A stretch of 21,882 bases of DNA from Candidatus Hermodarchaeota archaeon. GTDB lineage: Archaea; Asgardarchaeota; Lokiarchaeia; Sigyniarchaeales; SOKP01. Under the pieces are notes generated by a model. It had not been told where the DNA came from. It did not search any database and saw only the letters and a list, made by a program, of their open reading frames with translations. Every line of letters starts with the position of its first letter. Position 1 is the stretch's first letter. Of this stretch, positions 18,224 to 21,882 are shown piece by piece. Both the position numbers and the translations under genes were made by a program. Where the stretch lies: assembly GCA_048885535.1 (NCBI GenBank), contig JBHLLO010000049.1:1-21882 (forward strand), given 5' to 3'.

Positions 18224-18757
18224 GTGAGTTGTATGGAGATTGAGTTTGAAGATGATATAAAGTTAGTGTTAAATAGAGGAATTATTGAACAATTACGAAT
18301 GTGTGTTAATAATTCTCATCCCAATGAAGCATGTGGAATAATTTTTGGGGAGATCACTCAAATTACGAAAAAAGACCATAACGATGATTTTATATACTAT
18401 TACAAAGGAACAAATTTTGAATGTATTCAATCAGATAGAAAATCTGCAGTAGCATTTTTAATAGAAAATATTGAGCAATTACATGAAATTATTCAAAGTA
18501 AGATTCAGCAATTAAATTTAAAAAGTAAAATCAGATTAATTAGTATTTTTCATTCGCACCCTTCTGGATCATATCCAAGTTCTATGGATTTAAATCAAAT
18601 GAAATTTTTAGACAGTTTTAGTAGTGTTATGCATCGTTTTACAAGTAAGGCTTTTAAAAACCTAGTTTGGACTATAATGGATGGTATAACCTATGAATTA
18701 AGGGGTTTTATCTATATAAATCCAAAATTCTTTCAAATTGAAGTAGTAAGAAGATAA
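18224..18757 (+). CDS. JAMM/MPN+ (Mov34/Rpn11-like) metallo-isopeptidase
   Basis: PNEACG...FHSHPSGSYPSSMD carries E, HxH, S and D. Starts 6 nt after the DUF4443-like gene; start is GTG 18224 or ATG 18233. Confidence 0.85.
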   Translation: MSCMEIEFEDDIKLVLNRGIIEQLRMCVNNSHPNEACGIIFGEITQITKKDHNDDFIYYYKGTNFECIQSDRKSAVAFLIENIEQLHEIIQSKIQQLNLKSKIRLISIFHSHPSGSYPSSMDLNQMKFLDSFSSVMHRFTSKAFKNLVWTIMDGITYELRGFIYINPKFFQIEVVRR

Positions 18758-18763
18758 AAACTA

Positions 18764-19405
18764 TTATTGAACTTGTTTATACCCATCCTTGTTGATGGTA
18801 CAAATTTGGATATGAAACCCAGAAGCAGCATCTCTTTCACGAGAACTGGAGATAGCTGTCTTTATTAGTTCAATTCCTGCAGTCAGTGTCATATTAGGTT
18901 TCCAATCAGCTTCTAATACTCCTAATGAGAAAGGTCCTCCAGAACCAAAAGCAATAAAATGTTCATCTTCGTAAAGAGTCCCTAATAAATCTACTCCATA
19001 TAATTTGCCTTTTTTTTCTTTAAGTGAATAACCCCCAATAATCATCATAGCAAGATAATACGATCTACCACTGAATAAAATGTTTCTTGTTATACTTGCA
19101 ATATATTTAGGTTCAGGAATTCTTTCTTCCTCAACTTCTTTTAATCGTGAAAAGGCTATCAATTGATTTACAATATATTGGCAATCAGCAACAGTACCTG
19201 ATATTGTGGCACATGTATAATTATTTATCTCAAATAGTTTCTGTGCAGTTTTTGTAGCTACAGTATAACCCGCAGTGGCTTGAGATTCTGTTCCAACTAC
19301 TACACCATCCTTTACAATAATTCCGACTGTTGTGGTACTCGATTTAATGATTCTTTTTAAAGAATCCTTATCTAAATTTAATTTATTGGAAATATTTTCC
19401 ATCAT
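18764..19405 (-). CDS. psmB: 20S proteasome beta subunit
   Basis: Propeptide then TTTVG, Glu17, Lys33, GSGG, RDAASG. Confidence 0.95.
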   Translation of the reverse strand: MMENISNKLNLDKDSLKRIIKSSTTTVGIIVKDGVVVGTESQATAGYTVATKTAQKLFEINNYTCATISGTVADCQYIVNQLIAFSRLKEVEEERIPEPKYIASITRNILFSGRSYYLAMMIIGGYSLKEKKGKLYGVDLLGTLYEDEHFIAFGSGGPFSLGVLEADWKPNMTLTAGIELIKTAISSSRERDAASGFHIQICTINKDGYKQVQ

Positions 19406-19548
19406 TTTTCAAAAATCCTCTAGATGTTATATTGAATAAATTAACTTTTAGTATATTTATTTTTCTTTTACAGATTATAAAGATTTAAACACAAAAATTT
19501 TAAAGAAATCAATAACTTTACTACTTACTATTCTAATCATGGTCTGTC

Positions 19549-19926
19549 ATGGCTCGTTCTCAAGCAAGATCGAAAAGAAGATATACAGGAAAAAAATATA
19601 GATATTTTAGAAAGAAGAGAAAGCGAGAATTAGAACGCCCTCCTATAGAAACTAAAATAGATGAGGAAAAAAAGAAAAATCAGAGAACTTTAGGAGGAAA
19701 TATAAAATTAAAATTATTCTCGTCGCTATATATAAACGTTACAAATCCTAATAATAATAAAACTTCTAAAGTTAGAATCTTGAAGTTTGAAAGCAATGAT
19801 GCCTCAAAAGATTATAATCGAAGGCATATATTAACTAAAGGAGCAATTGTAGAAACTGAATTAGGAAAAGTAAGGATCACTTCTCGCCCTGGTCAACATG
19901 GTGTGTTAAATGGGATTTTAGTATAA
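19549..19926 (+). CDS. rps8e: 30S ribosomal protein S8e (eS8)
   Basis: RSKRRYTG, RKKRKRELER, RTLGGN, ILTKGAIVETELG, TSRPGQHGVLNG. Confidence 0.97.
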   Translation: MARSQARSKRRYTGKKYRYFRKKRKRELERPPIETKIDEEKKKNQRTLGGNIKLKLFSSLYINVTNPNNNKTSKVRILKFESNDASKDYNRRHILTKGAIVETELGKVRITSRPGQHGVLNGILV

Positions 19927-19963
19927 TTACGTTATATAGGTAAAGAAAGAAATATAACAAATC

Positions 19964-20698
19964 TTATTCAATAAAACCCCCATCTTTATTAAGTTTTAAT
20001 TGATAATAAACCAATCCATCAAGAAAGTTATCAGAAGGCATTTTTTCTAAAGAAGATATTGAAAGCCACTTTAAATGCCCTTCCCATTCATTCTTATCAG
20101 ATGATACCAACTCATCTGGTTTAAAGTCATAAGATTCACTAACAGTGGCAGAAATAAGAAAAGTAATTGATATATTATCCCATCCACCTAAAATTGCTCT
20201 TAGAAAAAAAGTTGGTTTTAAAGGTATACAAACTTCCTCAAATAACTCACGTGTTAGGGCAACTTGTGGTGGTCTATCTAAATCATTGATTTCTACTATT
20301 CCCCCTGGGATATTTATAGCTCCTGGGAAGTAACTTTGCGATAATGCTCGTTGACCAATTAAAATATGTTCTAGATTAGGGGAAAAAACAAGATATTGAG
20401 TTCCAAGCACTCCCAATCCTTCGGTTAACGTTATGGTTTTTGTTAACATGTAAGTAGCCATAGAAAATTTCATCTTTTCAATATCTAAGAGCAGTAAGTT
20501 ATTTTTTAGATAATAATTACTTAAAAATATTAACGTTCCATCATAATCATTAGGGTTTTCTTTTGTGTGTTTGTTCCAATGTTTTTTAGCCTCAGTTTTA
20601 TATTGATTTGAGAATTTGAATTTGTTTATGAGTTTTTTATTCCATTTAATATAATCTAATAATAATTTACCCTCCCAGAGAATGTCTAACTTCGGCAT
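19964..20698 (-). CDS. Nudix hydrolase (NUDT22-like long N-terminus)
   Basis: PGGIVE...ALTRELFEEVCI Nudix-box variant; upstream NPNDYDG motif. Confidence 0.8.
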   Translation of the reverse strand: MPKLDILWEGKLLLDYIKWNKKLINKFKFSNQYKTEAKKHWNKHTKENPNDYDGTLIFLSNYYLKNNLLLLDIEKMKFSMATYMLTKTITLTEGLGVLGTQYLVFSPNLEHILIGQRALSQSYFPGAINIPGGIVEINDLDRPPQVALTRELFEEVCIPLKPTFFLRAILGGWDNISITFLISATVSESYDFKPDELVSSDKNEWEGHLKWLSISSLEKMPSDNFLDGLVYYQLKLNKDGGFIE

Positions 20699-20764
20699 TA
20701 GATTATTATTACTAAAAGAAATTAAAAACTTTCCGTTTCTAAAAAAGTAGTGTCAGAAACTCAA

Positions 20765-20875
20765 TTAATCTTGAATCTTTATATTTTTAACATTTGCTTT
20801 CTTACCCTCTATTATTTCCGTATTTTTACTCATACAATAGTTACATTGAAATAATTGAAGTCCTGTCAATTGACA
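20765..20875 (-). pseudogene. hypA: Orphan 3' fragment of hydrogenase maturation nickel chaperone HypA
   Basis: QLTGLQLFQCNYCMSKNTEIIEGKKANVKNIKIQD* matches the HypA C-terminus (CxxC.S....I..G....V..I). The N-terminal MHE motif and first CxxC are absent upstream. Confidence 0.7.
20864..20875. repeat. 12-bp perfect palindrome at the hypA-fragment junction (candidate att/target site)
   Basis: TGTCAATTGACA, 1 nt from the stop codon of ORF 20877..21104. Confidence 0.55.
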
Positions 20876-20876
20876 C

Positions 20877-21104
20877 TTACTTTTTCCCTTTTTTTTCAAA
20901 AAATTCTTTTTGCCTTTGACGCAAAACGTCCAAAGCTTCCTCTGGAAGTATTTTCCCATCCAATATATCTTTATAGACTTCGTCTAAAATTTTATAATCA
21001 TACTCACTTGGAAGTACAATCTCATGCAATTCTGATGCAAACTTGTACAAGAACTCCTCTCTACTGAGTTTTTTAACTTTTCTACTTTTTCTTCCATTCA
21101 ACAT
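20877..21104 (-). CDS. Small helical hypothetical protein
   Basis: 75 aa, ATG start 30 nt after the upstream stop, same strand, charged amphipathic composition. Confidence 0.6.
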   Translation of the reverse strand: MLNGRKSRKVKKLSREEFLYKFASELHEIVLPSEYDYKILDEVYKDILDGKILPEEALDVLRQRQKEFFEKKGKK

Positions 21105-21134
21105 GATTAATAAAAATATAAATTATTTAAACTA

Positions 21135-21882
21135 TTAGGGAATATTTTGATTCTGATTTCTTAGAAATGTTAGATAATGTGTACCCCAAAAAGGCTTCTT
21201 AATGTTGTCATTATAAAATTTATCATAATACCTCTCAAACCAAGCCACCTCACCATGGGTAATAAAAAAGTTAATCCTTTCACTAAATTCATCAATGTTA
21301 CTTTCTCCTAAAACTTGACTGATGGAACCAAGATCATTTTTTGTTATAGTCCTACCCAATTTCAACAATTGAATAATTGCATCGTGCATAATAACCTTTC
21401 TTGTTCGTAATAAACGTCTTGTACCATAAATATCTCTTAATGTACAAATCTTCCCCTTGAAATTTGTATTGAGGCGATACAGGTGAGGAATATCACCTAA
21501 ATTTTCATAATCATACACAATTATTAAAACATTAGGATCTAGTGATCTTTTATTCTCATTTATATGGTGTAAATTCCAATATATCTGATTTGACGATCGA
21601 TCTATCAAAAAATCTTTAGACCATAAATTAAGACCCATTGTCTCTAATAATATTGTATATGAATTTTCTGGAACAAGTTTAAGCCAGCTTTTGCGATCAC
21701 CCTTACTTAAAGTCCTTAAAGGATAATTTCTCTTAATGTACTCTCTGTTAAACTGGTATAATTTTGAACCCGAACTTGGAGCCTCGTTTACATTAACAAC
21801 AGCAAGTTTACTAATGCGCATACAATTTGAATAAGTAAATCCTTTCTCTTTTAACTTATTTGATATGAATTTAGTAGCTCGG
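21135..21882 (-). CDS. C-terminal part of a larger protein with HNH-like motif (5' truncated by window edge)
   Basis: The frame stays open upstream of ATG 21821 to the window end (RATKFISNKLKEKGFTYSNC-M). Contains WNLHHINENKRSLDPNVLIIV. Confidence 0.6.
   Translation of the reverse strand, partial: RATKFISNKLKEKGFTYSNCMRISKLAVVNVNEAPSSGSKLYQFNREYIKRNYPLRTLSKGDRKSWLKLVPENSYTILLETMGLNLWSKDFLIDRSSNQIYWNLHHINENKRSLDPNVLIIVYDYENLGDIPHLYRLNTNFKGKICTLRDIYGTRRLLRTRKVIMHDAIIQLLKLGRTITKNDLGSISQVLGESNIDEFSERINFFITHGEVAWFERYYDKFYNDNIKKPFWGTHYLTFLRNQNQNIP

Follow-up and report, generated by a model that had tools for sequence, protein, structure and literature searches.

To our knowledge, the traffic of DNA into and out of Asgard genomes is poorly understood. 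The targeting of a gene end with restoration of the gene is already known in bacteria, and likewise for the homing endonucleases of organelles and phages. Phage 21 and e14 integrate in icd, the casposons of Thaumarchaeota insert at the 3′ end of aEF-2, and the mob and seg genes of T4-like phages are free-standing HNH and GIY-YIG homing endonucleases. Integrative elements that target and restore gene ends include SGI1, located at the trmE 3′ end, and islands found at dusA (PMC8409611). The nearest described architecture to that presented here is, by analogy, found in the fungal mitochondrial cases of PMC6279837, where free-standing homing endonuclease genes lie beside partial C-terminal duplications of cob and atp6. 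The subject of this work is a stretch of DNA from Candidatus Hermodarchaeota archaeon (the genome G000), in which a displaced 3′ end of the hypA gene is located next to a two-gene cassette comprising orf248 and orf75. The stretch (hereafter the window) is the entire contig G000:C49, with a length of 21882 bp and a guanine–cytosine (GC) content of ~30%.

An insertion separates the working hypA gene of this genome from its displaced 3′ end. The duplication of the gene end, the break in synteny, the combination of a foreign working tail with a native orphan and the repetition of the layout at three genes are established by the comparisons that follow. Judged from the sequences, related cassettes appear to have displaced the ends of two other genes in sister Asgard genomes. 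A small cassette is therefore present at three unrelated conserved genes, each kept intact by a substitute end that appears to be imported, and it is the recurrence of a cassette with a nuclease-like ORFan and imported ends that is new in an otherwise known kind of arrangement. We favour a reading in which the cassette resembles a homing endonuclease gene and replaces gene ends, and hold it to be evenly balanced between right and wrong. No mention of hypA as an integration target was found in the papers searched on integration sites and integrative elements or in the main texts searched on Asgard mobile elements, the supplements of which could list sites.

The orphan hypA end and the working gene

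The orphan is located on the minus strand at 20765..20872 and comprises 35 codons and a stop. Its translation, QLTGLQLFQCNYCMSKNTEIIEGKKANVKNIKIQD followed by the stop, resembles the C-terminus of HypA and contains the second CxxC pair. Upstream there is no hypA body and no MHE N-terminus; the unrelated orf75 is found there instead. These features had been recognized in a preliminary description of the window made from the sequence alone, and all are confirmed. The anticipated match to the Pfam HypA model (PF01155) is also obtained with the 64-amino acid (aa) open reading frame (ORF) that holds the orphan (E = 0.0012, aligned with profile positions 71–112 of 112), but its score of 19.2 bits falls below the gathering cut-off of 28.9 bits. 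Since the Pfam score is weak taken by itself, the identity of the orphan is based on its nucleotide match to the genome's own hypA. By that match the orphan is a fragment of hypA, and not a member protein of the HypA family. The 64-aa ORF (20765-20959, minus strand) starts at an ATG inside orf75 in another frame, extends over the orphan tail and probably does not represent a gene.

A complete hypA gene of 123 aa is present in the same genome on a second contig (G000:C82:1140-1511, minus strand), with an MHE start, both CxxC pairs and a Pfam score of 98.7 bits, and hypA is not broken in this genome. The window sequence 20765-20872 aligns without gaps to the last 108 nt of this gene (C82:1140-1247) with 97/108 nt identical, the two copies forming a diverged direct repeat. 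One edge of the repeat falls exactly at the stop codon, and the other at 20872. The orphan is closer still to the hypA of the relative L011, with 99/108 nt identical. The preliminary description had proposed a displaced 3′ fragment at one junction of an insertion with the gene restored at the other, and had looked to the sequence beyond for the 5′ part of hypA. Both expectations are supported by the gene on C82, which is complete and in which the tail is repeated. The alternative of an intervening sequence removed at the DNA or RNA level is unnecessary, as a complete hypA with its own stop exists on C82.

The homology boundary at 20872 lies inside a perfect 12-bp palindrome, TGTCAATTGACA (20864..20875), in agreement with the earlier observation that the similarity begins within it. 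The palindrome had been regarded as a special junction that might have a second copy. It occurs once in the whole assembly, and the window contains 16 perfect 12-bp palindromes compared with 13.0 ± 3.3 in 50 shuffles, so that its presence is at the level of chance. It is probably incidental, and its candidature as a recombination core was dropped.

Which of the two copies is native was examined at the 11 positions where they differ, in comparison with 13 relatives (L015 and L016 were excluded as they have extra hypA codons). The last 22 nt of the orphan match those of the closest relative, L011, at 22/22 positions, and those of the next four relatives at 19–21/22. The corresponding segment of the working gene matches L011 at 17/22 and these relatives at 15–17/22, and none of the 13 relatives (0/13) shares its states at positions 99, 101 or 105. 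The encoded C-terminal residues are ...KILE in the working gene, and ...KIQD in the orphan and in the two closest relatives. After simple duplication and drift the unconstrained orphan would be expected to be the divergent copy. The reverse is observed, which argues that the working tail was imported and that the orphan is native. On this comparison the orphan is the host's original hypA end, and the working hypA carries a foreign tail. The 5′ half of the repeat is mixed (positions 6, 18, 41, 42 and 51), with a state at position 41 that is unique to the orphan and the opposite at position 18, and the crossover can be located only to the part that lies upstream of position 87. At the DNA level hypA is most conserved in its 3′ 108 nt, which are 88–92% identical to the relatives compared with ~79% for the first 264 nt, and this high conservation would make them a good landing site. 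The orphan also has a lysine to methionine change directly after the CxxC, a state seen in 0/13 relatives.

The HypA protein was searched in 40 relatives and in G000. A single hypA is found in 22/24 other genomes of the genus. SRP19-hypA lies on the same stretch as rps8e in 15/15 same-genus loci, together with psmB where the locus extends far enough, and the uninterrupted hypA-(Nudix)-rps8e order foreseen for the relatives is thus present in all 15. A Nudix-like gene is located between hypA and rps8e in five of these loci, as a fragment in L012 and in partial form in L020. In the window the order is psmB, rps8e, Nudix, orphan tail, orf75, orf248 and the contig end. The ribosomal protein S8e gene (19549..19926, plus strand; Pfam Ribosomal_S8e E = 1.4e-35) provides the synteny anchor in the host flank, and the Nudix gene (19964..20698, minus strand; Pfam NUDIX 23.6 bits) is host flank downstream of the original hypA end. 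The C82 contig begins within a SWIM/Rho_N-domain ORF, after which come orf94, a spacer of 515 nt, the complete hypA and SRP19. At least 1010 + 1139 nt (~2.15 kb) of DNA absent from the relatives' loci separate the working hypA from the orphan. The insertion continues past the window, as the region upstream of orf248 (21822..21882) reaches the contig end. Base composition does not mark out the insert, with a GC content of 0.26–0.33 throughout. The window side of the insert shares no terminal inverted repeats with its C82 or C90 side, and at the junctions Rfam found no RNA gene and ARAGORN no tRNA.

The region 18500-21882 was compared with the Logan contigs of four runs (X1–X4) from one study. 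A contig of run X2 (record 13, 3648 bp) spans 18931-21882 in one piece and runs ~696 nt further, and 1080-bp contigs of runs X1 and X3 end 34–38 nt beyond the window. The junction at 20876, for which a misassembly had been considered, is thus assembled in a single contig, with the limit that the run that best holds it is possibly the window's own source sample and gives limited independent support. The depth in Logan contigs is 13.3 on the cassette side, 12–14.9 on the host side and 14.1 for the C82 allele. Loose ends at 20872/20873 in these contigs are the genome's own C82 allele and the hypA genes of relatives. The spanning contig and the matching depths on both sides speak against an origin that involves no mobile element, whether by chromosomal rearrangement, by an old local duplication followed by drift, or as an assembly or binning chimera of two strains. 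Drift is further opposed by the 22/22 match of the orphan to its relative when the working tail matches at 17/22. That the hypA locus of 15/15 relatives lacks orf248, orf75 and the SWIM module, that orf248 is present in only 1/41 other genomes of the genus and that the layout recurs in two further genomes all point in the same direction. What such an origin has in its favour is that C49 and C82 are not physically joined; no k-mer overlap (21–127) of the C49 end with any contig was found, and the C82 start matches C90 only. In addition a 1-kb module (C82:1-1002) is repeated on C90 with 91% identity, and such repeats can drive rearrangement and break assemblies. Overall we regard an origin of this kind as highly improbable.

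Related cassettes at two other genes

In the genome G010 (L043, G010:C67) the segment 6103-7925 comprises two tandem units, each with an orf248 pseudogene (containing stops) and an orf75-like gene, located between an OsmC-like gene and SecE. The OsmC-like gene and SecE are 41 nt apart in G000, and match contiguously in 4/5 other relatives. Flanking the insert is a direct repeat of 87 nt that corresponds to the 5′ end of the OsmC-like gene, with 79% identity and a spacing of 1736 nt. The orphan copy, which lies beside SecE, has a host-like start and a host-like upstream region. The first ~87 nt of the working OsmC-like gene are divergent, forming a foreign start, and its upstream region is unrelated.

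In G106 (L056, G106:C102) the segment 479-1918, 3′ of an EF-2-like gene, holds an orf248 remnant (E = 4.5e-10, with two stops) and an unrelated 298-aa ORF. The latter has no kinship to orf75, orf94 or the long HNH-domain proteins, and its stop is 4 nt before the orphan. The orphan is a 64-nt copy of the last 16 codons and stop of the EF-2-like gene (80% identity, spacing 1376 nt). The EF-2-like gene and a downstream GTPase gene are neighbours in 8/8 relatives, with a gap of ~65–115 nt in five of them and 270–730 nt in the other three; in G106 the gap is ~1485 nt. The 3′ part of the orphan and the sequence downstream resemble the closest relative and the working tail differs, in a comparison that was possible for six of the eight relatives (L082 and L085 gave no short-blast match). 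The target recalls that of casposons, which likewise enter the 3′ end of an EF-2 gene. Unlike casposons, the G106 insert has no Cas1 or polymerase gene and measures 1.4 kb, and its 16-codon repeat is not a target duplication of the casposon type.

The three loci (in G000, G010 and G106) share a single order, consisting of the working gene end, a spacer, orf248, one ORF, 4–13 nt and the orphan. orf248 is transcribed towards the orphan copy in 3/3 cases, with one ORF in between. Each has a direct repeat overlapping the target gene, of 108 nt (90%), 87 nt (79%) and 64 nt (80%). The cassette is absent from the hypA locus in 15/15 relatives, from the OsmC–SecE interval in G000 and 4/5 relatives, and from the EF-2–GTPase interval in 8/8 relatives, and its presence is thus polymorphic at conserved sites among close relatives, as expected of a homing endonuclease gene. 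No motif shared by the three orphan junctions was found beyond AT-rich similarity. A fourth, short orf248 remnant is present in G067, 639 nt from the contig end, with no repeat within the 2366 nt examined. The earlier proposal of a mobile element that uses hypA as its site stands as far as the insertion at hypA is concerned, but hypA is one of several targets together with the OsmC-like and EF-2-like genes. With cassettes at those genes too, the suggested link between element mobility and hydrogenase maturation is not indicated.

The difference between the targets bears upon the possibility that a circle with a captured gene-end fragment integrated by a single homologous crossover (Campbell-type integration), with orf248 uninvolved and selection sparing only those insertions that pass through gene-end fragments. 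Guidance by homology, rather than by a recognition sequence, fits targets as different as hypA, an OsmC-like gene and an EF-2-like gene. One crossover through a terminal fragment gives exactly a whole gene and an orphan end, and in hypA the tail is the most conserved part of the gene. The repeats are nevertheless short (64–108 nt) and only 79–90% identical, and the constant polarity, with an ORF stop 4–13 nt from the orphan boundary in the three cases, suggests a defined element end. A nuclease-like gene is present every time, and we consider Campbell-type integration quite improbable.

The orf75 and orf248 genes

The last gene of the cassette, orf75 (20877..21104, minus strand), encodes a small basic helical protein of 75 aa, and its stop is 4 nt before the orphan homology. 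It has no match in Pfam, PHROG or NCBIfam, and the ESM Atlas offered nothing usable. In the two G010 cassettes its homologs (78 and 81 aa, 35–38% identity) occupy the same position.

The candidate mobility nuclease orf248 (21135..21821, minus strand) has 228 aa from its ATG, in a frame that is open to 21881. A word-indexed search of a 5.8-billion-protein index returned a self-match only, and a full phmmer scan of 1.84 billion representatives gave 11 proteins at E ≤ 0.001, two of them long proteins that end in the orf248 domain. From an 11-sequence alignment, AlphaFold (AF2) produced a model with a predicted local distance difference test score (pLDDT) of 77.5 and a core >90. The single-sequence AF2 model (pLDDT 39.5) was unusable, and the ESM Atlas again gave no usable lead. 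When the model was compared with 48161 chains using VIA-align, at least 20 of the top 27 matches were HNH nucleases or the HNH region of Cas9/IscB. The top scores were obtained with Cap5 (Z 5.5, 5.2 and 4.7), McrA (4.9) and Cas9/IscB HNH (~4), over model residues ~48–151, and other HNH matches in the list were the GVE2 HNH, ZRANB3, the Gme HNH and T4 endonuclease VII. The alignment of 11 sequences contains the motif W.RHHI(D/N)E(D/N)K..(D).N...(L)V...EN...I(P)H. H85, H113 and W82 are invariant in the six sequences of alignment A2, and the His-His...Asn...His arrangement is typical of the catalytic pattern of HNH nucleases. The predicted model and the motif point to a nuclease of the HNH type (beta-beta-alpha-metal), an assignment that is no more than probable. 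orf248 is thus a predicted nuclease-like protein, uncharacterized and lacking a curated family.

Relatives of orf248 are found in 1/41 other genomes of the genus (G010), and in 15/154 genomes of the order including G000, all from one family. Viral and metagenome contig collections scanned with orf248 and the SWIM ORF gave no relatives, and a scan of a genome contig collection with alignment A2 returned only the G010 and G099 loci, which were already known. Long proteins with a C-terminal orf248 domain occur at L069 (G127:C129, 12000-20096) and L068 (G099:C30, 1-2821), with lengths of 469+ and 657+ aa, and adjoin related zinc-finger ORFs (130 and 277 aa). In G127 a tyrosine-integrase-like ORF of 302 aa and a 505-aa ORF are located near the long protein, and this region is likely to be a larger mobile element.

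Mobility of the cassette and neighbouring modules

In the favoured reading, mobile DNA would have inserted inside hypA at approximately codon 88. The incoming DNA would supply its own last 35 codons and stop, leaving hypA whole on C82, and the host's old tail would be displaced downstream to lie beside the Nudix gene. The mobile unit would be the two-gene cassette orf248–orf75, acting like a free-standing homing endonuclease gene. The putative nuclease encoded by orf248 would cut cassette-free alleles at the conserved gene end, and repair from a cassette-bearing allele would then copy both the cassette and the donor's gene end. The duplicate gene end would have been created by a first, illegitimate invasion. 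We infer both the nuclease activity and the homing mechanism. This reading is favoured because inserts of 1736 and 1376 nt, in G010 and G106, leave no space for a recombinase, and because the only gene that they have in common is orf248. The orf248 pseudogenes in G010 and G106, and the presence of the gene in 15/154 genomes, are what is expected of a selfish nuclease gene.

The organization parallels that of cob and atp6 in the cases described in PMC6279837, where a whole gene is followed by endonuclease ORFs, often degenerate, and then by an orphan C-terminal duplicate. Those cases too are sporadic in presence, and their endonuclease ORFs decay. They differ in that the enzymes are of the LAGLIDADG or GIY-YIG type and the setting is an organelle (PMC6279837), whereas here the putative enzyme is HNH-like without a curated family match and the setting is an archaeal chromosome. 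The exchange of 5′ ends, seen in G010, is a further difference. A second parallel, in the action proposed, is provided by the mob and seg genes. These are intergenic nuclease genes that cut a nearby conserved gene in a cassette-free genome and co-convert its flanks. The phage cases seldom leave a duplicated gene end, and the host here is a cellular Asgard archaeon.

A number of observations weigh against homing by orf248. orf248 homologs with 61% identity are located at unrelated targets, an uncommon finding for a nuclease that is sequence-specific. Reads indicating cleavage, excision or an empty site were not seen, and Logan contigs cannot show an empty site or excision. The adjacency of C49 and C82 through an unassembled interior is deduced from synteny. 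The SWIM/Rho_N ORF and orf94 (C82:1-1002), which adjoin the working hypA, are unrelated to the orf248 cassette. orf248 matches no family in Pfam, NCBIfam or PHROGs (in Pfam no HNH family even at E values of up to 10 or 1), and a sequence search of the PDB gave nothing; distant HNH domains are frequently missed by curated models. The best VIA-align superposition (Z 5.5, root-mean-square deviation 3.3, 90 residues aligned) lies in the range of Z <8 that can reflect a common arrangement. The top Foldseek matches are Cas9 and HNH chains with a best E = 0.22, and none at E ≤ 0.001. The HNH assignment, based on a predicted model, is to that extent weak. The orf248 relatives in other genomes are also found as the C-terminus of long ORFs (469–1711 aa), one of them near the tyrosine-integrase-like gene, and the short cassettes could therefore be remnants of larger elements. 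An integrase may also lie in the unassembled interior of the G000 insert.

These last points lead to a larger integrative element (a provirus, plasmid or island) that would integrate through a site-specific recombinase, its attP mimicking the last 108 nt of hypA. orf75 and orf248 would then be cargo located close to the attachment (att) site, and the integrase would be encoded in the part of the insert that is missing from the assembly; the inserts of G010 and G106 would be deletion remnants. Such elements are classically recognized by a direct repeat that restores the gene. The interior between window position 21882 and C82:1 is missing, the X2 contig (record 13) running 696 nt further, and elsewhere a 26269-bp contig exists that carries orf248. 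The long orf248-domain protein of G127 is ~5 kb from the tyrosine-integrase-like 302-aa ORF, and the 61% identity of orf248 homologs at unrelated targets also fits an element of this kind. Integrated elements with short att repeats are among the Asgard examples described in PMC11529989. The comparison with SGI1, the dusA islands, phage 21 and e14 extends to the insertion inside a conserved gene end, the substitute end borne by the element and the orphan as a diverged direct repeat. Those elements have a tyrosine integrase beside att; here none was found and two of the three inserts are too small.

The integrase or transposase sought by the preliminary description was not found in the assembled 2.15 kb of the G000 insert (window 20873-21882 and C82:1-1139), the interior of which is unassembled, and no recombinase gene is present in the complete repeat-bounded inserts of G010 and G106. 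In the G000 assembly, which is 91.6% complete, the sole PF00589 tyrosine recombinase is the housekeeping protein XerA (239 bits against a cut-off of 220), conserved at 75–90% identity in 5/5 relatives. A search of G000 with the G127 integrase and its neighbours gave only a weak match, to XerA. The G010 and G106 inserts hold only orf248-type sequence and one small or unrelated ORF, and three independent remnants would all have to retain the same gene in the same polarity. An integrase-borne element is the main alternative to homing, and appears rather unlikely. A foreign working end with a native orphan is predicted alike by homing, by an integrase and by Campbell-type integration, and this pattern therefore does not separate the three.

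Beyond the individual loci, orf248 might represent an undescribed family of HNH-type mobility nucleases in Promethearchaeota (Asgard) that drives small end-replacing cassettes, a suggestion made tentatively and with the greater weight of doubt. Cassettes of this family would invade the 5′ or 3′ ends of genes (hypA, OsmC-like and EF-2-like), adding a foreign end and orphaning the native one. If orf248 is a mobility enzyme, it would be a new homing-type nuclease with long natural target sites. If the favoured reading is true, the imported ends would provide a route for the horizontal replacement of parts of housekeeping genes. On the tentative suggestion of a new family, the cassettes would be a cellular, chromosomal counterpart of the intron-less homing of organelles and phages, through which Asgard genomes would acquire mosaic gene termini. 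For annotation, short orphan gene tails beside ORFans can mark insertion junctions.

The module at the C82 end (C82:1-1002) recurs at C90:439-1435 with 91% identity; it comprises the SWIM/Rho_N ORF, orf94 (94 aa) and ~375 nt, and also bears a terminator-like stem. Close copies are found in G000 only, and 36/41 other genomes of the genus have one host paralog of ≤44% identity. On C90 (L026, 1-1630) the module is directly adjacent to the 3′-terminal 267 codons of a gene whose product has ~765–800 aa in four relatives, with a Vps28-like C-terminal region (25.8 bits). The 5′ 498 codons of this gene and five upstream ORFs (~8 kb in G018) were not found in the G000 assembly. The module could be part of the same element, a nested insertion or the mark of a rearrangement.

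Some smaller features of the region may be added. C82:625-1139 and window 20699-20764 have no DNA match in the relatives' loci. The Nudix gene varies within the genus and, where whole, is only 38–42% identical, compared with ~75–90% for hypA and rps8e at the same loci, and G010 has an extra 134-aa ORF in its hypA–rps8e interval. The region 3′ of hypA may be a site of repeated insertion. Finally, a 103-nt tRNA is located at C82:1994-2096 (L010), upstream of SRP19 and ~480 nt from hypA. It scores 50.9 bits with Rfam and was missed by ARAGORN, and presumably contains an intron.

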